From the sequence record OR770614.1: a DNA stretch of 64,000 bases. One strand, given 5' to 3'. Below are positions 3,032 to 43,673 of the stretch, piece by piece. This stretch comes from Staphylococcus phage vB_StaM_PB50. Below the pieces are notes generated by a model, which saw only the letters and a program-made list of their open reading frames with translations, had not been told where the DNA came from and ran no database searches. The position numbers and the translations under genes are program-made. Every line of letters begins with the position of its first letter. Positions within the stretch are counted from its first letter, which is position 1.

Positions 3032-3395
3032 ACACCTCGATTATTTTTGTAAATCATTTACTTTGTAATTTAATAATTATTGGTTAATTCAGTTTAATAA
3101 TTTTTTCTTTATAAAAAATTTGAAATCCACCACAATATATTATTTATATATTTGTAAATAATAGATTTTTTATTAATTAATAAATATATTATAAAAAATA
3201 ATATTAATTAAAAATGTTATTAAAAATTAAGTAATTAAAATTAAAGAAAAATACTTATAAATAAACTTAATTTGGATCATAGAAAAAATTAAAAATTACA
3301 ACTAATATTTTAAATATATATTATTTTAATGAGATTAGTATAAATACTAATTTCAAATATATAAAAATATGTAAAATATAAGGAGAGAATATGGT

Positions 3396-4976: not shown

Positions 4977-5040
4977 TCCCTAACACTTATATTCCTTAAA
5001 TGGAGTATTTGTGTTAGGGAAATTTTTGTTTTTTTTTGTA
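4977..5040 (+). terminator. rho-independent terminator (stem 'TCCCTAACAC...GTGTTAGGGA' plus T-run)
   Basis: Inverted repeat 'tccctaacac'/'gtgttaggga' followed by 'tttttgttttttttt'. Confidence 0.6.
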
Positions 5041-5098: not shown

Positions 5099-8000
5099 GT
5101 GGTGAAATTAAAAGTAATGGATAATAATAAAAAGAATATAAAGAGGCTAGAAAAAAATAATAAATCAGAGATAATTAAAAATGCTTCTAAAAATACTAGT
5201 CGTATTCTTTTCAATGCATTTATTAAATCAAATCCAGCATTAGATAGTGTTATTGGTTCTGATGGATTAAATTTAATGAATAAAGAAGAAAGAAGAATTA
5301 AAAACGTTTCTGAAATTAAATCTTCCACTAAGAATTTAATAAAAAGTATTAAATCTAGTTCAGAAGAAAATGATATATTTTCAGAAGAAAGTGAAGAAAT
5401 ATCAAATTCTAAACCTGAGTATGAAACAGTTACTGAAATAATTGATAATGATGATGGTACAAAATCTGAAATAATAAATGTTTCAGATAAAAAGAAATCT
5501 AGTCTAGTAAATTCCCCTTTAATTGCTTTTAATAATCTCGCTACGATTAACCAAAAAGGTTTTACAGGAACTAATATAGCTTTAAGAAATTTAGCGATAT
5601 CAAATGAGGCTACAAGTACTTTAATGAATTCAGCTGTATCGAATTTAGCATCAATACAGAGTTCTATATATCAAAATACTTTACTTGAAGAAAATACTAA
5701 AAGAGGAAAACAGAGTAAACTATTTGAAATAATTAATGGTAATATAAGTTTATTAAAATATTTAGACGATAAGACAAATATTGAAAATAATTCAATGATA
5801 AGTATGTTAGGTGGTTCTGAAGGACTTAAGAATATATTAATGGGATTTGCAAAAAATCCTATTGAATTAGCATTAACTACAGGTGCTCAAATGGGCATGA
5901 AGAAATTGATGTATGGAAGTACTTCAGGATACGATCCAGATGATGTTGAAAATAAAGGTATATTTAGTAGACTTAATAGAAAATTTGATCCTAATAATTT
6001 AGGTTCTTTATTAGTAAGTGAACTGACTGATGATGAAGGAAGGTTATCAAATACCTTAGATAAACTTAAAGGTAATGATAATAAATATATTTCTAATTTA
6101 GGTGAAGCACTTAATAAAAGAATCGGAAATTTAAAAGATAACGTTTTAAGTGATGGAACAATATCAACTAAGAATAAAAGAGATAAAAATACTCCAGTTC
6201 AATTTGATAGACAAAGTCATACTTCTATTAATAAAGCTATACCAGATCTTTTATCTAGATTACAAGGTAATCTAATTGCTAGAAGAGAAGGAAAATCTAA
6301 TGGTTTAGTCAATAATAGTGAATTAGGTAGTATATATAATTATTCTGAAGGAACTTGGGATAGTAGAGAGAATACTAGAAAAAATATAAATGATAAATTA
6401 AAAGAAAAATCATTATTTAATTTTAAAGATACTAAATTAGGAAAAGATTTATCTGATAATGGTATTGAAGATGAAGAAATTAAGGATATCTTACTCTCTT
6501 TAAGTAAAATTAATAAACCAGTAAAAAATAAAGATGAATTATCTAAGCATACTAAAGATATAAATTATTCAGATATTATTGAAAATATTTTCAATAATGA
6601 TATATCTAAATTTAATATTGATCTTTTTAATATTAAGAAATCAATAGGCTCTGAGTATAACAAGATTGGTAAAGATGATTCAACATTAATGTCATTTACA
6701 GATATTAAAGGATTAAAAAGAAGAAATAATGAAACTCAATCAAGTTCTGCTAGAGTAAATAAAATTAATGAAGTTAAAGATTATTCTGATATCGAATGGA
6801 AGAATGATGATCTTGATGAACTTAAAAAATTATTCTTAGAAATAGAAAGTAAATTAGACGATATTAATCCAGAAAATATAAGCAATAATAAAGATTATGT
6901 AAATGATAAAATAGGAAAAATTAATAGTATTATAGATTCGTCTAGTAAGTTTAATTTACCTAGTTATTTATCTAATGAAAAAACAAAATCAGTTCAAGAC
7001 AAATTAGGTAAACTATCAAGTTCTGTTAATAAATTTAATGATATGCGTAAAGATCCTTCATCTATTTTAAGAGAAAACACTAATAATAATGGTAATAATG
7101 AAGATCATAATTCTGGTATCATAGATAATAACTATACAGATAATCATCCTTTAATGAATTTAATAAAGAATATTAAAGGACCTCAGAGTAATAATAAAGT
7201 TGATTTAAATAAAGAACCAACTAAAAGTATTGATGATTTATCTAGAGAAGAAAAGCAATCTAAAGCTAGAAAATATCTTGAAAATTTAATTAGCACTGCT
7301 TATCCTAAGCAAAGTAAAACTATGATAAACGACATGAATCAATCTGATGATAATAAAAAATTAGATGAAATGAAAAAAGGTTTATCAACTGCAAATGCTG
7401 CTGAGACTGGTGAAGACGTTATATCAAAATTATCAGGATCTAGTAAAACAAAGGTTGCTGAAGATTTAAGAGGAACTCTTAAATTTGGCTCTGGTGGAGC
7501 AGCTGAAAAAGAAACAGGTACTAAGAAATTAATGAACTCAATGTTAGATTTTAGTAAACCAGGAACAATTGCTTTTGCAGGACTATCTGCTACTGTTTTG
7601 GCTAAATTAATGAACGGTAAAAAGAAAAAAGATCAAGAAAAAGGTCTAATGGGTAGTGTTGGAACAGGATTGGGATTCTTAGGTAAAGCTGGATTAATGT
7701 TAGGTGGAGGTGCTATAGCAGCAAAATTCTTACCTAAGATACTAAAGAAATTCTTACCTAAAGGTGCAATGAAAATGCTTGATGTAGTTAGAGGACTACC
7801 TGGTAAAGTTAAAGGTGCTATTGGTAAAGTTGTAGATATAGGAAAAAACTTTTATGGGAAAACTAAAAATTTAATAAAAGGTATTGGAAATTTAGGTAAA
7901 AATATATTTGGAAAAACTGTTAAATTTGGTAAAGGTGCATTCAATAAAACTGTTAAATTTGGTAAAGGTGTATTCAATACAGGTGCATCTGTAGTAAAAT

Positions 8001-18371: not shown

Positions 18372-20534
18372 ATGAAATTATATAGAATAGAAGAATTAAT
18401 TGATAAACACAATTCTGGAGATATTGTAATAACTAAAATTAAAGATAATGAAAATAAAACTTTAATCGAAACTAAAACAAAGAAAAGTGATAAATTAATA
18501 TTAAGAATTGAATCTAATTCTGAAGAATATAAAAAATTTACATTTAATGAAGATAATACACTTGATATTTCAAAATCAGAAGATTATATCAAAAGTGAAT
18601 ATGGTTTAGAGAATCCAACTTTTAGATTAGAGGATATTTCTTCAGATATTTTAGTATATGAAGAAAGACCTTATGAAATTATTGGTGAATTAAAATATGA
18701 CTTATTTACTATATTCTATAATTATTTAGGTAAAACAGAGAGAATTTATGACACAAACTTCATAGGGAATATAGAATATGAAGATTTGTCTTTTAATAGT
18801 ATAGAAAGAAAGGAAGTGAAAATCGAACCTTACCCACCAATATACCAAGATAATAGAAAGTATCCTAAAGATTATGCTTATAATCGTAAAGTATTAAAAG
18901 AATCTGAAATTATAGATGGTTTAATACATGAAGGGTTATTAGATGATGGTAGGATATTTTATGATGCATATCTAGGTGATATATATAAAACAAGGGAAAG
19001 TAACTTTGATGGAGCTTATAAAAGAAAATCAGGATATGATAGATTTCTTGGAGAAGGTTATGTAACTATTGAGGATGGAATATTGGAAATGAACATTTAT
19101 ATTCCTAATTCTTCTTATTATGAAATTAGATGTAAAAATGGAAACCATTTTAGTAATGGTACAGTGAACAAAGTATTTGTAGATAATGTAGGGTACTATT
19201 TTAGATCTCCGACAGATAGGGAATTTATATGGAATAGATCTATATTAGAATTTTATAGAGATTCAGAAAATGAATTTTATGAAGAAGTACCATTGTATTT
19301 GGAAAAAGGAAAACATACGTTTAAATTTGAATACGATAAAAAATTCTCTACTAAAAATAATGATATAGATATTCTTATACTTCAAGAGACTGAAGTTCCT
19401 GAATCCAAAAATCCTTTTTATATTAAAACTTATAATAACTTTAAGATTGGTACTCGTACTATAATTCCAATGAGTGATTTTTATGTAGATAATGATTCAT
19501 TAAATATGGGTACTGGAAATATTTTAGAAACTGTAAAGATAGATGGTAAATTAACTTCTATTGATGAAGTTAATAGAATGAACAATAAATTTACAATTTT
19601 AACAGGTACACTTAAAAATGAAATCAAATTAACTGAATCCGGAATGTACACATTCAATTTACTGTTTAGAAGAAAAAATAGGAATGAAGTTAATAATAAA
19701 AAAGAAGAAGCAATAATTAGTATAAATGGTAAAAATTACTTAGCTAAAGTATATGGAGATCATAATGATTTATGTACATTATCTTTATATAAGAGAAATA
19801 CTGATATAGGTATAGATGATCGTATTAAAGAAGTATATCTGAAAAAAGAAAATGAAATTAAAATAACAGTGTCTGATGAAAATAATTTTTTATTTGACTC
19901 ATTGATAATAAATTCAAATACCATTGAAAAACATTCAGATGTCAATCCAAAAGCATTATTATACCCTAATCTTAAAGATCACTATTTCATATTTAAGGAT
20001 TATGTAGAAACAAATAATGATGATGAATTAAATAATATTGATGGTGAAAAATCAAGATCATTTAGAAGTATTAGTGAATATATAGATACTGAAGATAATA
20101 TTGAGTTTTATATAGAAAAACCTCCTATATATTATGCTATTAATGAATTTGATTATAACACTAGAAAATTAGAATTCGATATTAGATATAAAAATCCAAT
20201 ACAGAATTTAGATATTTCTTTCCCAATAAAGTCTCATTATTTACCTAAAATTTTAATGATACATGATGATATGCAATTTGATAGATATATGATATTTAAA
20301 CCTTATGTATTTGAATCCATTAAATATCTGAGTCAGGATTATTCTTATGAGGGTTATATTAGCAAATTTAATAAGTATGACGCTAAATTAGTTCCACTAC
20401 AGAATTTTACTGAAAGTGAAATTGGTGAAACAATATACGATCTTGGAGAAAATTGGAAAGATAGATTATTGAATGAAACTGAGAATTTAGATATTATAAC
20501 ATTATGTCACATATATTCTAGAATAAATTATTAA
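18372..20534 (+). CDS. hypothetical protein (possible baseplate/tail component)
   Basis: 720-aa ORF with ATG after 'aaaggaat'. Synteny only. Confidence 0.45.
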   Translation: MKLYRIEELIDKHNSGDIVITKIKDNENKTLIETKTKKSDKLILRIESNSEEYKKFTFNEDNTLDISKSEDYIKSEYGLENPTFRLEDISSDILVYEERPYEIIGELKYDLFTIFYNYLGKTERIYDTNFIGNIEYEDLSFNSIERKEVKIEPYPPIYQDNRKYPKDYAYNRKVLKESEIIDGLIHEGLLDDGRIFYDAYLGDIYKTRESNFDGAYKRKSGYDRFLGEGYVTIEDGILEMNIYIPNSSYYEIRCKNGNHFSNGTVNKVFVDNVGYYFRSPTDREFIWNRSILEFYRDSENEFYEEVPLYLEKGKHTFKFEYDKKFSTKNNDIDILILQETEVPESKNPFYIKTYNNFKIGTRTIIPMSDFYVDNDSLNMGTGNILETVKIDGKLTSIDEVNRMNNKFTILTGTLKNEIKLTESGMYTFNLLFRRKNRNEVNNKKEEAIISINGKNYLAKVYGDHNDLCTLSLYKRNTDIGIDDRIKEVYLKKENEIKITVSDENNFLFDSLIINSNTIEKHSDVNPKALLYPNLKDHYFIFKDYVETNNDDELNNIDGEKSRSFRSISEYIDTEDNIEFYIEKPPIYYAINEFDYNTRKLEFDIRYKNPIQNLDISFPIKSHYLPKILMIHDDMQFDRYMIFKPYVFESIKYLSQDYSYEGYISKFNKYDAKLVPLQNFTESEIGETIYDLGENWKDRLLNETENLDIITLCHIYSRINY

Positions 20535-20537
20535 AAT

Positions 20538-20578
20538 ATATCCCCTAACACATTTATTTGTGTTAGGGGATTTTTATT
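20538..20578. terminator. bidirectional rho-independent terminator (stem 'CCCCTAACACA/TGTGTTAGGGG')
   Basis: Perfect inverted repeat flanked by T-runs on both strands, between convergent genes ending at 20534 (+) and 20586 (-). Confidence 0.65.
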
Positions 20579-28732: not shown

Positions 28733-29446
28733 CATTTATGTTAACTGTATTAATGTAATACAGATCAGACTATGTCTTATTATTCTTCTCTAATTCATAA
28801 TGGCATTTTTTACAAACTGTAATAACATTTTCATCATAATGTGCTTCATTAGGATCATTAAATTTTATTATAGGTATAATATGATGTATTTCTAAGTTTT
28901 CTTTAGAATTACAGTTAGTACACATATAATTATCTCTTTTCATGATCTCTTTTCTACGTCTTCTATAAGTTCCACCGTATCTTGTTGGATTTTCTTTAGA
29001 ATAAGTATAATTGGCACATCTATCAGAACAAAAGTATCTCTCTTTATTATTAGCAAAAGTTAAAGAAGGTCTAGAGAATGTTTTATTACAAGTAAAACAT
29101 TTTTCTTTTCTTAATTTTCTTTTAGCTATAACAGAAGCACATTTTTTTGAACAACTGTCAGATTCTTTATGAGATGTTCTAAATTCATTATTACAAATAG
29201 TACAAATTTTTAAATAACGTCTATTTTTACAATTTTGAGAACAATATACTTTAGATTTATATTTTGTTTCAAAATTCTTACTACAAACAGGACATTTTTT
29301 ATTTTCCATTATTATCACCTCAAATCATTATTTGAGAAGAATAATTAATATATTTAGTCGTTGAACAACTTTTTTAAGTTGATGCTAATTGGTTTAATAG
29401 AAACGTCTTAGCAATTAATATTATTTTTATTGAGCCATTAAAATTA
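28733..29446 (-). mobile_element. group I intron in nrdE carrying an HNH homing endonuclease ORF
   Basis: On the minus strand: P 'aattgctaagacg', Q 'aattagcatc', R 'gttcaacgactaaa' (~29352-29366), S 'aagacatagtctgatc' (~28771-28790). Exon 1 ends with U ('...caattgggt|taattttaatggctc'). The intron ends with G immediately before 'cagagaaatgg'. ORF sits between R and S (P8). Confidence 0.75.
28770..29318 (-). CDS. intron-encoded HNH homing endonuclease with multiple CxxC zinc-finger motifs
   Basis: C-terminal HNH motif 'ENLEIHHIIPIIKFNDPNEAHYDENVITVCKKCHYELE'. N-terminal repeated 'CPVCSK', 'CSQNCKNRR', 'CTICNNEF', 'CFTCNKTF' motifs. Confidence 0.8.
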   Translation of the reverse strand: MIIMENKKCPVCSKNFETKYKSKVYCSQNCKNRRYLKICTICNNEFRTSHKESDSCSKKCASVIAKRKLRKEKCFTCNKTFSRPSLTFANNKERYFCSDRCANYTYSKENPTRYGGTYRRRRKEIMKRDNYMCTNCNSKENLEIHHIIPIIKFNDPNEAHYDENVITVCKKCHYELEKNNKT

Positions 29447-32957: not shown

Positions 32958-34269
32958 TTATTTGAATAAATCCATAATACGTTTATTATTGTTATCTATT
33001 GGTTTTTGTTGTTGACCAAATATAGAATTACTCATATCATTTCCTTCAATAACACTATTGATACGTTTAATTGAAGCAATATCTTTTCTTCTAGCTTCCT
33101 GTTCTTTTTTCATTCCTTCTGCATTTTCACTGTTAGGTGAGAGTTTAGAACCATATTTAACTTTTACAAATTTATTAATATCCTTTTCATAATAATATGC
33201 ATATAAACAGAATAAATAAGACATCATTAAGTCGTCATGGCCACCTGGTGGATGGTCAATACGTCCTTTAATCATTTGTAACGATTTAATTTCTTGGAAA
33301 AGTGGTTTATTATTAATTAAATGTGGTTTTTCTTCAACAAGCATAGATAATATTTCATTTAACATTATATCACGAGATTTTTTAGTTGTATCAATACCAT
33401 ATCTACGAGTTTCTTTTTTAACTTTTTCAGTTTTACTATATCTAGACATTTCATTAAATAAACTTTTATTTTCTACTTGCTTTTCAGCTACACGAGTTTT
33501 AAGCGTATAGAATAAATTAGATTCTAAACCATCATAAGTTATCATATGATCAATTACTGTTAAACCTGCATAGTTACGTTCAGGTATTAATATAGCGTTA
33601 GGTATATAGAAACCAACCAATTCTTTAATTAATTTTCTGAATGTAGGTCCATTAATTACATTATTTTTAAAAGTCATTACTGGTTCCAAAGTAGCTGGAT
33701 CCACTACAGTAAACGCTGTATTATCTCGTCCTAAACCACCAGACATATCAATACCAATAAGCCAATTTTTCTCTGTAATATTATCCATATATTTAATCAT
33801 ATTTACATAATAAGTTCTACCATCAATATTAAATTCAAGAGTATTATATATTTCTTTATTAGCATACATAGATATTTCAGTCATTTGTTCTTCAGAGAAT
33901 AATGAATCATCAGAACTATAAGCCCATTCCAATAATATCTCACGTTTAACTGCTTCTAAAGAACCAATTTGTCTTTTTTGTTTTTCTAACCAATCTTCAT
34001 CTTTACCTAATTCTTTATATGAATATTCTATATACATGAATTCATTATTTGAATTATCTTCCATGTATTTTTCTAATTTAGAATTTCCTTCTTCTTCACT
34101 ATCAATAAAATAATCATATATTTTTTCATTCCATTGAGCTGCTTCATTCATTTGTTGAAAGAAAAATTGCCCTTGAGATGTGTCGAGAGTTGAAGGGGTT
34201 GTGGTGATAAGGAGTCCATAGGGAGAACCGTTTTCTTTTGCAATTCTAGAAGCTGTACTTATTGCTGGT
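32958..34269 (-). CDS. terminase large subunit, exon 4 (ATPase motif III plus nuclease domain)
   Basis: In-frame extension upstream of the listed Met reads 'PAISTASRIAKENGSPYGLLITTTPS...' (TTTP coupling motif, compare T4 gp17 '[11 protein letters not shown]'). Nuclease 'WLIGIDMSGGLGRDNTAFTVVDP' and C-terminal 'HDDLMMSYLFCLYA'. An in-frame stop immediately upstream means the exon must be spliced. Confidence 0.8.
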
Positions 34270-34443
34270 CATTTATGTTAGCTGCATGGATTATCATGCA
34301 GATCAGACTATATCATAATCTTTTTAAGATTTAATAAATTTAGTCGTTGAACATTATTTAATGATGCTGATTGGTTTTTAAACTTTTCAGCAGTTAATAT
34401 TATTCATCATCTATATTTCTATAAAGATGGAGCCTTTTTACTC
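34270..34443 (-). mobile_element. mini group I intron (ORF-less, ~174 nt) in terminase gene
   Basis: Minus-strand P 'aactgctgaaaag', Q 'aatcagcatc', R 'gttcaacgactaaa', P8 'aatctt aaaa agatt', S 'atgatatagtctgatc', P9 hairpin 'tgcatgataatccatgca', then 'gctaacataaatg|'. The 5' exon ends in U ('gaagcaat|gagtaaaaagg'). Confidence 0.7.
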
Positions 34444-34506
34444 ATTGCTTCAAACATTACTTGATTATGTGGTATAAACGCCCACTCATCAAGCCAAACC
34501 ATAGGT
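34444..34506 (-). CDS. terminase large subunit, exon 3 (Walker B)
   Basis: Translates (with 1 nt from the previous exon) to 'PMVWLDEWAFIPHNQVMFEAI', matching T4 gp17 '[20 protein letters not shown]'. Bounded by in-frame stops in flanking intron sequence. Confidence 0.7.
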
Positions 34507-35724
34507 CATTTACGTTAAACTGCATGGATTATCATGCAGATCAGACTATATCATAATTTTAATAATTTTTTCATAGGGATAATTAATTCTTCATTTATTC
34601 TATTCTGATAAGGGAGACGTATCATATTTATTCCTTTACTTCTTATAAATTTATCTTTTTCATTATCTAATTTTTTTATATCTTCAAGAGTTCTTGTGCG
34701 TTTATTTCTTTTATCATTAATAAAAGTTCCATAACCTTTTATATGTCCTTTTCCATCTACTTCAACTACAGTATTTATTTTTTTAAAATAAAAATCAAAT
34801 CTAAAACTAGATCCTTCAAAAGTAACTTCATTCTCATATTCTATATTATTCTCTTGAAGAAATTCAATAATGGCAATTTCTCCTATACTTTTAGAGCATA
34901 CACTACATCTTTTTCTTTTAAGTATATCATCTGGTCTTGTTTTAAATTTGTGTCCACAATCATTACTCTTCAAATAGATATAATCTTTGCTTCTAGTATA
35001 TTCAGTTAACACATTAAATTTATTATATCCAAATATCATATCTAATTCACCTTGAAACTCTTCTGTTGTCTTTTTAGATAATTCTTGACTATCTAATATG
35101 ATATAATTTTCATCATTTATACATCTATTACAGTTTACTGAATTATACTTCTTTCTTTTATCCATTAGAGTAGAAGGCTTTGCAAAATATCTTATATTTC
35201 CACATTTTCCACAACGGAATCTACACTTTTTATTCATTCCATTGAATCCTTCAATATAAGTATAATTAAATCCGAACTTATCTTTTAATTCTATTAAAAA
35301 AGTTTCTTTACCTTTAGAATTCTTGGGTTTTTCTGAATATCTACAATCTTTTCTATTACAGAATTTTCTCTTTAATCTTAATTTTTCAGTAGGTAAGAAA
35401 AAATCTCTATCACATATATTACAATGACATTTAATTGGTTCTTTAGAATTTTTATACTCTCCCAGTATTTCAAATTTATCTCCATTAATATCTTTTATTT
35501 CTTTAAAAGTTTTATTTCTCTGTTCTATGAATTTTTCTTTACTTTTAACACCTTTAGGCATTTTATCCCTCCGTTATCGTACTGATAAAAGAATGTTAAC
35601 AGTAAAAATTATTAAAATTGATTTTATTTAGTCGTTGAACACTAATTAAAGTGATGCTGATTAACTTCATTATTAGTCTTCCAGCAATTAAAAATCTTTA
35701 TGCACTGCATCTACATACGGTGCT
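34507..35724 (-). mobile_element. group I intron carrying a Zn-finger/PD-(D/E)XK endonuclease ORF in terminase gene
   Basis: Minus-strand P 'aattgctgg', Q 'aatcagcatc', R 'gttcaacgactaaa' (~35625-35640), S 'tgatatagtctgatc' (~34535-34550), P9 'tgcatgataatccatgca', end '...gtttaacgtaaatg|'. ORF 34551-35561 lies between R and S. Confidence 0.7.
34551..35561 (-). CDS. intron-encoded putative homing endonuclease: N-terminal CxxC zinc fingers plus C-terminal PD-(D/E)XK (DUF559/Vsr-like) nuclease
   Basis: 'VVEVDGKGHIKGYG...DKRNKRTRTLEDIKKLDNEKDKFIRSKGINMIRLPY' fits the DUF559 pattern (xEVDGxxH ... R..D..K...L...G..vlR). Several 'CHCNIC', 'CNRKDC', 'CRFRCGKCG', 'CNRC' motifs. Confidence 0.55.
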   Translation of the reverse strand: MPKGVKSKEKFIEQRNKTFKEIKDINGDKFEILGEYKNSKEPIKCHCNICDRDFFLPTEKLRLKRKFCNRKDCRYSEKPKNSKGKETFLIELKDKFGFNYTYIEGFNGMNKKCRFRCGKCGNIRYFAKPSTLMDKRKKYNSVNCNRCINDENYIILDSQELSKKTTEEFQGELDMIFGYNKFNVLTEYTRSKDYIYLKSNDCGHKFKTRPDDILKRKRCSVCSKSIGEIAIIEFLQENNIEYENEVTFEGSSFRFDFYFKKINTVVEVDGKGHIKGYGTFINDKRNKRTRTLEDIKKLDNEKDKFIRSKGINMIRLPYQNRINEELIIPMKKLLKL

Positions 35725-35744
35725 ACCTCTTCCTGCTTTGTTTG
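35725..35744 (-). CDS. terminase large subunit, exon 2 (micro-exon ~20 nt)
   Basis: Sequence between the 3' end of intron 1 ('...atacaatgtattacgg|') and the 5' end of intron 2 ('gaggt|agcaccg'). A 20-nt length keeps exon 1 (phase 0) and exon 3 in frame. Encodes ~'QTKQEEV' (or 'ANKAGRG' if shifted by 1 nt), filling the 7-residue gap seen in the T4 gp17 alignment. Confidence 0.45.
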
Positions 35745-35904
35745 CCGTAATACATTGTATGATATTCATACACACTAGACTATATCTTATAATATTAATT
35801 ATCTCTATATTTAGTCGTTGAACAATCAATTTGATTGATGCTGATTGGTTTAGTATCTTTTTCAGCAGTTAATAGAGTTTAATGAGAGCACGTATTTTAC
35901 TCTC
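35745..35904 (-). mobile_element. mini group I intron (ORF-less, ~160 nt) in terminase gene
   Basis: Minus-strand 5' end '|gagagtaaaatacgtgctc', P 'aactgctgaaaaag', Q 'aatcagcatc', R 'gttcaacgactaaa', S 'aagatatagtctag', P9 'tgtatgaatatcataca'. The 5' exon ends in U ('acaaatgct|'). Confidence 0.65.
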
Positions 35905-36531
35905 AGCATTTGTTGGAGGTGATACTGTTTTTATTGTGTTGTTATTACTTGCTAAAGAAAATTCATTAATTTTGTCTCTATCATTTTTATCACCAAAGTT
36001 AGCTAATACATAATCCGGTAAACATTTCTCTTTGAATAGATTTTTTAATCGTTTAAGGTTTTCAGTAGTGTCCGAGTACGATTTATGTGTAAATAACATT
36101 GTATAGTTATTACCTACCAATAACATAATCCATGAATAATAACATACTGCAGAATATGTTTTATAGTGCTGACGAGGTAACATTATTGCAGTATCTAAAT
36201 TATGCAACATACAAAAAGTCATAGCTAAATTACCTCTATGAAGTTCATACATTACTTTTCCACCCGGAACCGGAACTCTGATAACTTCTCTTAAATAAAA
36301 CCATATATTAAGTTTAGCTTCCCTAATAACACGTGTTTTCATTTCATTATCTAGATCTTCATCCCAAGGATCAACACCAATTAATTTCTTATCATATAGA
36401 GTTAATGGCAATCCATAATTTTGTATATTATTATCTTTAAGTTCTTTAGCAACTTTTAAAAAGCTTACATTATTAGTTTTATAATCGTAATAAATTTTTT
36501 TCTTTAATTTTGTTATAGCCATAGTCTTCAT
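35905..36531 (-). CDS. terminase large subunit, exon 1 (Walker A ATPase)
   Basis: 'AIMLPRQHYKTYSAVCYYSWIML' is a Walker A of the T4 gp17 type ('SRQLGKTT'). The ORF continues 12 codons ('LIKLY*') into the intron. Confidence 0.8.
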
Positions 36532-42486: not shown

Positions 42487-42712
42487 ATGTCTAAAGATAT
42501 TAAAGCTTACATTATTAATGAATCTAATACAACTTCTCAACCAGAAGTAGTTCAAGATAATAACAAATCAGTTAGATTCATTGCTGAATTACAAGAAGCT
42601 GATAGACAAAACCGTAATGGTCGTGTTTATCGTAAAGATGTTATACAAAGTGGATTAGATAGTCCAGTAGTACAAGAAAAATTAGCAAGAAGAACTTTTT
42701 ATGGTGAGTTTT
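42487..42712 (+). CDS. putative prohead protease (T4 gp21-like), exon 1
   Basis: '...NRNGRVYRKDVIQSGLDSPVVQEKLARRTFYGEF' then the ORF stops. Exon ends in U before the intron start 'aggttaaaatggctcacg'. The family assignment is tentative. Confidence 0.5.
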
Positions 42713-42873
42713 AGGTTAAAATGGCTCACGTTAAATTATATTAATTGCTGAAATCTTATTTAAAGTAATCAGCATCAACTTAATACAAGTTGTTCAACGA
42801 CTAAATATATAACTTAATTTAATTAAGAAGATATAGTCTAATCTATATAAAATATAAATATAGATAATATAAG
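42713..42873 (+). mobile_element. mini group I intron (ORF-less, ~161 nt)
   Basis: Plus-strand P 'aattgctgaaatc' (42742-42755), Q 'aatcagcatc' (42767-42776), R 'gttcaacgactaaa' (42792-42805), S 'agatatagtctaatc', P9 'ctatataaaatataaatatag', end 'ataatataag|'. Confidence 0.7.
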
Positions 42874-43139
42874 CAGGTCATCCTTTAAGTGATGAACCTA
42901 AACGTCAAATGTATATTGATCAACGTAATATTTCTCATATTATCACTAGAACTTGGTGGAATGGTAATAAATTAATGGGAGAAGTAGAAACAGCTCAAAC
43001 AGCAGCTGGTAAAGATATGAAAGGTTTAATTGGACAAAAGTCTGATGTATCCTTCTCAATGCGTGGTTTTAGTAAAATAGAAAGAAAACCTAATGGTGAA
43101 GTAGAAGTTACTAAACCTTTAAGATTAATCTGTTACGAT
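42874..43139 (+). CDS. putative prohead protease, exon 2
   Basis: Reads 'S|GHPLSDEPKRQMYIDQRNISHIITRTWWNGNKLMGEVETAQTAAGKDMKGLIGQKSDVSFSMRGFSKIERKPNGEVEVTKPLRLICYD'. An in-frame stop 3 nt upstream of 'AGHP' requires splicing. Confidence 0.5.
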
Positions 43140-43319
43140 AAATAACTCTGTCGCTTCTTAAAGCAATTTAAGTCGAATAATATTATTAATTGCTGAAAAG
43201 AATTCATTAAATTAATCAGCATCCTCAAAAAGAGGTTCAACGACTAAATATAATATACTTAATTTATTAAGTAATGATATAGTCTAGTCTATATGAAATT
43301 CATATAGTTAATATAAACG
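43140..43319 (+). mobile_element. mini group I intron (ORF-less, ~180 nt)
   Basis: P 'attaattgctgaaaag' (43185-43200), Q 'aatcagcatc' (43214-43223), R 'gttcaacgactaaa' (43236-43249), S 'gatatagtctag' (43276-43287), P9 'ctatatgaaattcatatag', end 'ttaatataaacg|tggg'. Confidence 0.7.
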
Positions 43320-43673
43320 TGGGTAGTAATTCCATCACATCAAGATTCTTATATCCAAAATATAATTTCAGAGAATCATAATAATTACAATACTAGTGAT
43401 TTACAAATGGTTAATGAATCAATTGATATGTTTTCTAACGGTAAAGTTACAGAATTTTCTCCTAGAGAAGTTTTAACTTATATTAAAGAAAATTCAGACA
43501 ATATCAAATATATCGCTGAAGATATGGGATTTGATAAAGCTGATGAATCTAATATCATTTACGATAAAGGATCTCAATTAGCTTCAATTAAAGAAAGTAA
43601 TAAAACTATTAAAGTTTTCTTAGAAGAATCTGTTCTTAATGGACTTGATGATTTCTATAGAAACTTTAAATAA
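43320..43673 (+). CDS. putative prohead protease, exon 3
   Basis: In-frame extension upstream of the listed Met ('WVVIPSHQDSYIQNIISENHNNYNTSDLQ|MVNESIDMF...'). A stop codon sits at 43314-43316 inside the intron. Confidence 0.5.
   Translation, partial: WVVIPSHQDSYIQNIISENHNNYNTSDLQMVNESIDMFSNGKVTEFSPREVLTYIKENSDNIKYIAEDMGFDKADESNIIYDKGSQLASIKESNKTIKVFLEESVLNGLDDFYRNFK

Follow-up and report, generated by a model that had tools for sequence, protein, structure and literature searches.

In a 64,000-nucleotide (nt) stretch of the genome of Staphylococcus phage vB_StaM_PB50 (sequence record OR770614.1; hereafter the window, meaning the whole stretch), the terminase large subunit (TerL) appears to be encoded by one terL gene divided into four exons by three group I introns, A, B and C, of which intron B would carry a gene for a homing endonuclease. 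The probability of this reading, with the exon map given here, is placed at about 0.87. The exons were fixed by aligning the intact terL DNA of phage SA1 with the window, and all terL pieces lie on the minus strand, as follows (ORF, open reading frame; aa, amino acid residues).

Exon 1, 36531-35899, minus strand: 633 nt, 211 codons from the ATG at 36531; ends …AAT GCT GAG AGT.
Intron A, 35898-35746, minus strand: 153 nt, group I, without ORF.
Exon 2 (micro-exon), 35745-35717, minus strand: 29 nt, GCAAACAAAGCAGGAAGAGGTAGCACCGT.
Intron B, 35716-34507, minus strand: 1210 nt, group I, with the homing-endonuclease ORF.
Intron-B ORF, 34551-35561, minus strand: 336 aa, putative homing endonuclease.
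Exon 3, 34506-34441, minus strand: 66 nt, A CCT ATG GTT TGG CTT GAT GAG … GCA ATG AG.
Intron C, 34440-34270, minus strand: 171 nt, group I, without ORF.
Exon 4, 34269-32958, minus strand: 1312 nt including the stop codon; begins A CCA GCA ATA AGT.

By DNA similarity, the segment 32958-36531 belongs with the AR9/PBS1-like Staphylococcus jumbo phages, and the closest clade for the window is that of the Machias/AH12-like Staphylococcus jumbo phages. A 20-kb query taken from the window was 94-96% identical to AH12 and Machias, and nothing in the collection searched matched it along its full length. Machias DNA is 97% identical over the first 2.3 kb of 32958-36531 (about 97% from exon 1 into part of intron C), and SA1, S6, UFV_DC4, PALS_2, MarsHill, Madawaska and LY01 are about 80% identical to this segment.

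Conceptual splicing of the four exons yields a 2040-nt in-frame ORF for a 679-aa TerL. Exon 1 encodes the N-terminal ATPase part, including the P-loop-like motif PRQHYKT, and is colinear with residues 1-209 of SA1 TerL (…SPPTNAES); an alternative start is the ATG equivalent to 36522, from which Machias terL is annotated. Exon 3 encodes (V)PMVWLDEWAFIPHNQVMFEAM(R), with the Walker B motif and the catalytic Glu, and gives a tblastn match to SA1, while exon 4 encodes motif III (TTTP) and the C-terminal nuclease domain, all three introns falling within a 34-codon stretch of the ATPase catalytic centre. In profile searches, exon 1 matched PHROG 32359 (terminase large subunit; E 3.9e-55) and PHROG 2 (E 3.1e-21), and Pfam Terminase_6N scored 18.6 bits on the spliced protein against a cut-off of 22.

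The strongest guide to the junctions is the intact gene. An uninterrupted TerL of 677 aa is encoded by SA1, S6 and UFV_DC4, that of SA1 reading …TVSPPTNAESANKAGRGSTVPMVWLDEWAFIPHNQTMFEAMRPAVSTAS… across the junction region. The spliced TerL is colinear with those of SA1 and S6 at 80% identity, and in the three-way alignment of the window, SA1 and S6 every residue from S204 to A245 is invariant except position 237. In an alignment of 98 sequences (the window plus 97 homologs of 27-80% identity), the segment TVSPP…TTTPS contains zero gaps, and D227 and E228, the Walker B and catalytic Glu residues of exon 3, are invariant in 98 of 98. The spliced DNA of nine phages carrying different sets of introns also fell into one common register.

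A sequence-only reading of the window had already claimed a single terL gene split by three group I introns into four exons, one of them internal and very short. This architecture is borne out by the colinearity with SA1 and S6, by the covariation described below and by the absence of intron-model matches from intron-less alleles, and the 3' boundaries of introns B and C, the latter followed by exon 4 from 34269, stand as claimed. Three of its six junctions do not: the 5' sites of introns A and C were misplaced, and the micro-exon was given a wrong frame and length. On that map exon 1 ends …AATGCT (35905), a micro-exon of 20 nt, CAAACAAAGCAGGAAGAGGT, encodes QTKQEEV, exon 3 ends …GCAAT, and the product would read …SPPTNA-QTKQEEV-PMVW…FEAI-PAIS…; all six boundaries fit the U|…G| rule without disturbing the reading frame. 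The intact SA1 and S6 proteins, however, read …NAESANKAGRGSTVPMVW…FEAMRPAV…, and the product of that map is without the GRG motif found in 97-98 of the 98 aligned sequences and is shorter than every homolog in the gap-free region. The guide of intron A pairs with TGAGAGT (seven contiguous pairs) and not with AATGCT, and for …GCAAT the P1 region offers no guide, the best ungapped pairing being 5/7 and lying inside P4. Both the intact-allele alignment and the intron A guide place the end of exon 1 at 35899 (…GAG AGT|); the SA1 sequence gives a 29-nt micro-exon encoding ANKAGRGST(V), and …ATGAG (M-R-P) is required at the end of exon 3, as …GCAAT (I-P) leaves the protein one residue shorter than all 97 homologs. 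We therefore hold the earlier boundaries to be highly improbable and use the corrected four-exon map throughout.

The corrected junctions also bear on the comparison with phage T4. To our knowledge, T4 gene 17 is without introns. Its product gp17 (PDB 3cpe, 3ezk) has the same order of motifs as the spliced TerL, with SANKAGRGSTVPMVWLDEWAFIPHNQVMFEAMRPAIS aligned ungapped and followed by TTTP; VWLDE of the window aligns to IYIDE of gp17, TTTP to TTTP, and HDDL of the nuclease domain is also aligned, within an overall match that is very weak (phmmer E 0.011). The residue-for-residue spacing from Walker B to motif III that had been claimed from sequence is obtained only with the corrected junctions and holds as far as …RPAIS, after which the two proteins differ by an 8-residue insertion before TTTP.

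As to the nature of the introns, the three group I cores that had been called between the two large minus-strand terL ORFs were recovered by their R and S elements and by matches to the Rfam model RF00028. The R element GTTCAACGACTAAA is present exactly at 35823-35810, 35640-35627 and 34352-34339, and the S element GATATAGTCT at 35786-35777, 34552-34543 and 34314-34305 (all minus strand). Six exact copies of GTTCAACGACTAAA occur in the whole window, where 0.52 would be expected even with two mismatches permitted. In all three introns, GTTCAACGACTAAA and (A/T)GATATAGTCT match the RF00028 consensus at the conserved J6/7-P7 'GUUCAaAGACUAAA' and J8/7-P7' 'AAGAUAUAGUC'. In a 1.9-kb scan of 34150-36050, RF00028 matched intron A with 25.3 bits (E 7.5e-4; 35908-35755), intron B in two parts with 21.8 bits (35698-35620) and 14.6 bits (34622-34520), and intron C with 34.8 bits (E 1.1e-6; 34433-34282), the E-values over the three sites ranging from 1e-6 to 8e-3.

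For comparative analysis, 22 introns were gathered from the window, seven relatives and their terL loci, and 15 non-redundant cores were aligned. RNAalifold recovered P4, P6, P7 and P9 from these cores, with eight pairs showing double compensatory changes. Helix P3, which crosses P7 as a pseudoknot, was paired in 65 of 66 cells over 11 helix sequences, a value equalled by none of 5000 shuffles; its variants include CTCTAT/ATAGAG, GATTTT/AAAATC and TCTATT/AATGGA. The order P3-P4-P5-P4'-P6-P7-P3'-P8-P7'-P9 could be mapped in introns A, B and C alike. At 19 of the 22 junction sets (among them introns at a further terL site, A', described below), U at -1 pairs with the G heading a guide at most about 15 nt into the intron (57 nt for intron A' of AH12); the sets without this U·G pattern are the two copies of intron C and intron A' of Madawaska. 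The guide covaries with the exon, as in AGCAGGT/GCTTGCT of MarsHill against AGCGGGT/GCTCGCT of AH12, and the terminal G (ωG) is present at all 22 intron 3' ends (…TATTACG, …GTAAATG and …ATAAATG in the window).

A custom covariance model built from these introns scored 115 bits for intron A, 75.9 and 34.6 bits for two parts of intron B and 130 bits for intron C, values that are not independent evidence because the model was trained partly on the window introns. Applied to the 64-kb window, it matched six introns, namely the three of terL, two that split the prohead protease gene and one in nrdE, and the same U…G rule gave in-frame products for the nrdE intron and both prohead-protease introns. 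It gave no match in the intron-less terL loci of SA1, S6 and PALS_2, and this absence of matches from intact alleles is independent evidence. The standard Rfam procedure misses all six of these group I introns, none being reported at the gathering score and the filters dropping them in the 64-kb E-value scan.

The elements mapped within the three introns are as follows (all minus strand).

Intron A: P3 35877-35872/35808-35803; P4 35868-35862/35844-35839; P6 35837-35823.
Intron A, continued: R 35823-35810; P8 35802-35789; S 35786-35777; P9 35773-35757; ωG 35746.
Intron B: P4 35687-35681/35660-35655; P6 35653-35640; R 35640-35627; 3' strand of P3 35625-35620.
Intron B, continued: S 34552-34543; P9 34539-34520; ωG 34507.
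Intron C: P1 partner GGCTC 34434-34430; P2 34429-34408; P3 34402-34397/34337-34332; P4 34393-34387/34370-34365.
Intron C, continued: P6 34363-34352; R 34352-34339; P8 34331-34317; S 34314-34305; P9 34301-34282; ωG 34270.

Intron A, which has no P2, carries the internal guide sequence (IGS) GCTCTCA at 35889-35883, pairing with the exon end TGAGAGT through seven contiguous pairs with U·G at -1. It is found in Machias as well, and is absent at this site from SA1, S6, PALS_2 and LY01. The micro-exon that follows, GCAAACAAAGCAGGAAGAGGTAGCACCGT, encodes ANKAGRGST and the first two bases of a Val codon, and aligns base-for-base with GCAAACAAGGCAGGAAGAGGTAGTACCGT of SA1. Its residues carry a near-invariant A..GRG motif, A212 being conserved in 95, R217 in 97 and G218 in 98 of the 98 sequences. 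The last 6 nt of the micro-exon are taken by P1 of intron B, and the candidate P10 of intron A, of only 2 bp, takes the first 2 nt. Since the two pairings do not overlap on the 29 nt, no overlap of the two ribozymes is forced, contrary to the earlier suggestion that so short an exon would make splicing of the flanking introns interdependent.

In intron B, the exon end CACCGT is matched by the IGS GCAGTG (35708-35703); the pairing has U·G at -1 and a single C/A mismatch. The start of exon 3, ACCUAUG, forms P10 with UGUAGAU directly upstream of the guide (6/7 pairs), and by our own reading of the alignment this P10 is kept in MarsHill with a covarying pair. The intron-less SA1 sequence around site B is …GGTAGTACCGTTCCAATGGTTTGG…. 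MarsHill, Madawaska and LY01 have an ORF-less intron B at this site, with the covarying IGS pairing GCAGTAG/CTACTGT, and intron B with the ORF was found in two metagenome contigs.

The ORF of intron B sits in the P8 position, flanked by the 3' strands of P3 and P7; it is preceded by a Shine-Dalgarno sequence, GGAGGG, at 35572-35567, and its stop codon overlaps the S element. Its product is 100% identical to the database entry 'homing endonuclease [Staphylococcus phage vB_StaM_PB50]' and matches PHROG 559 (E 1.7e-37), members of which bear the Gene3D assignment 'VSR endonuclease' (PMC11878797). The protein has N-terminal CxxC zinc-finger repeats, for which the Pfam treble-clef family DUF4379 scored 20.4 bits, below its cut-off, and a C-terminal putative Vsr-like nuclease domain with FDFY…EVDGxxH. 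Among six homologs the CxxC pairs and residues D256, E267, D269 and H273 are invariant. In the AlphaFold model the mean predicted local distance difference test (pLDDT) score was 66 over the whole protein; the 10-residue blocks of the C-terminal domain mostly scored 72-90, and residues 274-289 form a disordered loop. The best nuclease matches by Foldseek were E. coli Vsr (1vsr/1cw0; probability 0.97-0.99, target TM 0.42), and searches of PDB sequences, both by single sequence and by profile, and of NCBIfam gave no nuclease match.

Several observations weigh against the proposed structure. The splicing of the terL transcript is itself inferred. None of the terL introns attains the Rfam gathering score of 50 (25-35 bits), and scans of the whole window with Rfam, at the gathering threshold as well as by E-value with default filters, gave no RF00028. 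Most of the variable regions that RF00028 expects are missing from the introns. The Rfam covariance-model search that the sequence-only reading had suggested as a check gave RF00028 matches below 50 bits in the 34150-36050 scan and none from the whole window. For the endonuclease, the Foldseek E-values behind the nuclease fold are weak (0.06-0.15). The remaining points concern the 5' end of intron C. Its -1 base is G at the only in-frame junction that restores the conserved Arg codon, and the wobble of its P1 (AUGAGU/GGCUC-CAU) lies one base downstream, on the first U of the intron. A cut at this wobble U combined with a cut after ωG would give AGU ACC AGC … UAG, a frameshift. In an Anabaena intron, activity was abolished when the U·G at this position was turned into G·U, and the base at -1 has to be a pyrimidine (PMC12355055).

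Intron C was defined by comparison with intact alleles as TAAAAAGG…CATAAATG, starting with U and ending with G, and it has a P2 hairpin. Its junctions are identical in Machias, where ATGAG[171 nt]ACCAGCA is read as in the window, and the flanks ATGAG and ACCAGCA reconstitute ATGAGACCAGCA of Madawaska and SA1 exactly. FEAMRPA is encoded by all seven relatives with continuous sequence at this site. On the DNA identity with intact alleles, the clade-invariant Arg and a 3' tail common with intron B, ATGAG|ACC is our best inference for the productive junction. An alternative P1 for a site after G(-1), CAAUGAG/UUUAUAG (6/7, with G·U reversed), was considered and is not relied upon, being AU-rich, in competition with P2 and of the type found inactive in Anabaena (PMC12355055).

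The position of the wobble, which is exactly that found in intron A, invites a second reading, by which intron C would be cut at the wobble (…ATGAGT|) and the 3' cut would fall one base later (…AAATGA|CCA), leaving Ser in place of Arg at residue 243 and a terminal A on the intron. P1 (GAGU/GGCUC) then has the same form as P1 of intron A, the excised RNA is still 171 nt and the product in frame, and residue 243 is variable in distant homologs (Ser in 8 of 98). Against this, the other introns have an identical guanosine-binding helix P7, and G is the last base at each of the 22 intron 3' ends; intron B, with the same tail (…AAATG|ACC), needs G as its last base for the frame; and Arg is present in all seven close relatives, with the flanks reconstituting ATGAGACCAGCA. 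This reading is considered unlikely, and the junction ATGAG|ACC is retained. Intron C may then be a natural group I intron with a productive 5' site after a G in a G-C pair, one nt upstream of the U·G, either through cleavage at a non-wobble pair or through minority splicing against the frameshifting cut, a proposal which we hold tentatively and at somewhat less than even odds. If the minority-splicing case were true, TerL output would depend on the choice of splice site.

Introns B and C are further related through their 3' ends, which were compared from the S element through P9 (34552-34507 against 34314-34270 in the window, and 4980-5025 against 5217-5262 in Machias). The 3' 33 nt of the two introns are identical in the window, and one base differs between them in Machias. 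Between the two phages these ends differ, the P9 hairpin loop being inverted, GATAATCC against GGATTATC. Identity within a genome together with difference between genomes points to ongoing gene conversion between introns B and C, that is, to concerted evolution. We also considered that intron C might be a chimera with a 5' part from A and a 3' part from B, and rejected it: B-like sequence (94%) is confined to the 3' end, and the 5' half is about 75% identical to several introns. As introns B and C are both in phase 2, with identical 3' halves and the same exon start ACC, splicing from the start of B straight to the end of C could yield an in-frame TerL without Walker B, and from the intron phases skipping of the micro-exon would be expected to shift the frame.

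Taken together, the following scheme may be proposed. The terL gene would be transcribed as a single pre-mRNA, in which the introns adopt minimal group I cores (P1, an optional P2, and P3-P9, with no peripheral domains) and are removed, each by two guanosine-dependent transesterifications, so that exon 1, the 29-nt micro-exon, the 66-nt exon 3 and exon 4 would be joined to encode the 679-aa TerL. For introns A and B, the last exon U would wobble with the G heading the IGS, some 10 nt from the intron start, and each intron would close with a G; in intron B P10 would also pair with the start of exon 3. Excision of intron C would have to restore ATG-AGA-CCA, requiring a 5' cut after G, one base upstream of the wobble. 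Intron B with its free-standing endonuclease gene is presumed to be a mobile element that spreads by cleavage of intron-less terL alleles, introns A and C may be ORF-less passengers or derivatives, and the 3' ends of B and C would be kept identical within a genome by gene conversion.

Comparison of the related terL genes showed six intron sites within SA1 codons 209-267 (58 codons): A at 209|210, A' at 214|215, B in codon 219, C in codon 241, C' at 242|243 and D at 266|267. The introns found in each phage are as follows.

Window: A, B and C.
Machias: A, B, C and D (D at TTTP|S).
MarsHill: A', B and C'.
Madawaska: A' and B.
AH12: A' and D.
PALS_2: D.
LY01: A', B, C' and D, plus an insertion at 540|541 (site E).
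SA1, S6 and UFV_DC4: none.

The site-E insertion of LY01 carries a 'mobile element protein' and is not matched by the custom intron model. A metagenome scan added two short contigs with introns A' (in contig L013 only), B with its ORF, C' and D; intron C is absent from both, and no third example of its anomalous junction was found. Between introns A' (after GCAGGT) and B, terL has a micro-exon of only 14 nt, which is CGTGGTTCTACTGT in MarsHill, LY01 and contig L013, and AGAGGTAGTACTGT in Madawaska, at the positions given below.

MarsHill (L004), 2492-2505: 14-nt micro-exon.
Madawaska (L007), 2469-2482: 14-nt micro-exon.
LY01 (L008), 3377-3390: 14-nt micro-exon.
Metagenome contig L013, 43-56: 14-nt micro-exon.

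In MarsHill, 11 of these 14 bases are predicted to be engaged, four in P10 with intron A' and seven in P1 of intron B. Intron A' is 127 nt long in MarsHill (2365-2491) and LY01 (3250-3376), is without P2 and P9 and ends seven bases past the S element (…GATATAGTCTAAAATAG|); it is a very small group I intron, and a literature search on the smallest known group I intron gave no usable figure. The counterpart of exon 3 in MarsHill and LY01 is 71 nt, with intron C' located four bases downstream of the C site. PALS_2 (L003) has no intron at A' or B, and its codons 210-222, GCAGGTCGTGGTTCTACTGTACCTATGG, are identical to those of MarsHill and LY01, unlike those of SA1 and S6, consistent with either precise intron loss or co-converted exon flanks.

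The database records of this locus are incomplete. In the GenBank records of the relatives only two separate coding sequences (CDSs) are annotated as 'terminase large subunit', and a search of the protein database for a spliced TerL from these phages returned only exon-sized fragments; the exon 4 product is 99% identical to the 'terminase large subunit' fragment of Machias. Korn et al. (bioRxiv 10.1101/2020.12.14.422802) described TerL of MarsHill, Madawaska and Machias as disrupted by introns and declared the mature peptide not reconstructable, probably on account of the 14-nt exon. A search of IMG/VR with the exon-4 protein and the TerL alignment gave only terminases of 20-22% identity, none of them close, a search with an exon-3 DNA pattern gave 0 matches, and a literature search found no paper on vB_StaM_PB50.

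The two annotated CDSs could be taken to mean that the terL pieces are separate polypeptides of a split gene, or remnants of a decaying pseudogene, with inert intron-like repeats between them, and the sub-threshold Rfam scores would agree with this. On such a view, however, Walker B and the catalytic Glu would reside on a 22-codon piece and GRG on a 9-codon piece, both without start codons. The ribozyme helices are kept by compensatory changes, the exon pieces are as strictly conserved as the intact alleles, and Machias, which has the same three introns, forms plaques (bioRxiv 10.1101/2020.12.14.422802). We regard a split or decaying gene as close to negligible in probability, and return to the single spliced terL in what follows.

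Elsewhere in the window, a fourth group I intron of 714 nt lies at 28733-29446 (minus strand) in nrdE, the gene for the ribonucleotide reductase large subunit, between exons 30193-29447 and 28732-27278. Splicing restores …NQLG|QRNGAGALYL…, P1 is formed by ATTGGGT with GCTCAAT, and the intron carries an ORF for a 182-aa HNH endonuclease at 29318-28770. The prohead protease/scaffold gene at 42487-43673 (plus strand) contains two ORF-less group I introns, 42710-42873 (164 nt) and 43140-43319 (180 nt); its three exons, joined by U·G/ωG splicing, give a 278-aa ORF (…FYGE|SGHP… and …ICYD|WVVIPSH…). A weak match to NsiR1, a cyanobacterial small RNA, at 20528-20577 (plus strand; 27.2 bits against a gathering score of 39, E 0.32) is most likely due to chance in AT-rich sequence.

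The exon map completes an unfinished annotation, the exons of 29 nt (14 nt) and 66 nt (71 nt) being invisible to gene callers, and GenBank records from at least five phages can be corrected along the same lines. The group I introns of 127-171 nt in these phages fall below the Rfam threshold and are dropped by the default filters, so that 'no introns by Rfam' is not evidence of absence in this phage group; the paper on UFV_DC4, which found no introns, relied on Rfam. The phages sharing the hot-spot, with zero to five introns in varied combinations, offer a natural series for the study of homing, intron loss and gene conversion, and the findings leave the understanding of how group I introns or terminases work unchanged.

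The nearest known system is the MarsHill/Madawaska/Machias clade itself, in which the same gene is interrupted; introns A, B and C of Machias occupy the same positions as in the window, where its fourth intron, D (TTTP|S), is not found, and in the records of this clade the micro-exon, exon 3 and the exact junctions are unannotated. The micro-exon had been thought exceptional in size. An exon of 34 nt between group I introns is published for Coxiella 23S rRNA (PMC10136302), the relatives above have 14 nt, and orf142 of phage Twort, as far as Landthaler and Shub (1999) are cited in PMC10136302 and PMC11878797, has three group I introns, a 23-nt internal exon and exon skipping. Twort is likewise a Staphylococcus phage in which a single structural or late gene is interrupted by three group I introns, with a very short exon between two related ones; it differs from the window in the gene (tail tube), in its unrelated lineage, in the length of the exon (23 nt against 29 nt) and in that splicing is experimental in Twort and deduced here.

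In the Bastillevirinae, TerL contains two or three group I introns whose splicing was shown with cDNA, PHROG-559 ('HNH'/Vsr-fold) endonucleases are specific to TerL introns, and exon skipping was seen for TerL of SIOphi (PMC11878797). The window shares with these phages multiple group I introns in terL and a PHROG 559 endonuclease within one of them. In contrast, the Bastillevirinae represent another phage family and host, with introns averaging about 800 nt and detectable with Rfam/GISSD, whereas two of the three window introns are 153-171 nt and all are below the Rfam threshold. Phage TerL genes with several group I introns, short exons and endonucleases borne by introns are therefore already known in kind; new here are the correct exon map, the hot-spot picture with sites A, A', B, C, C' and D together with site E, and the odd 5' site of intron C.

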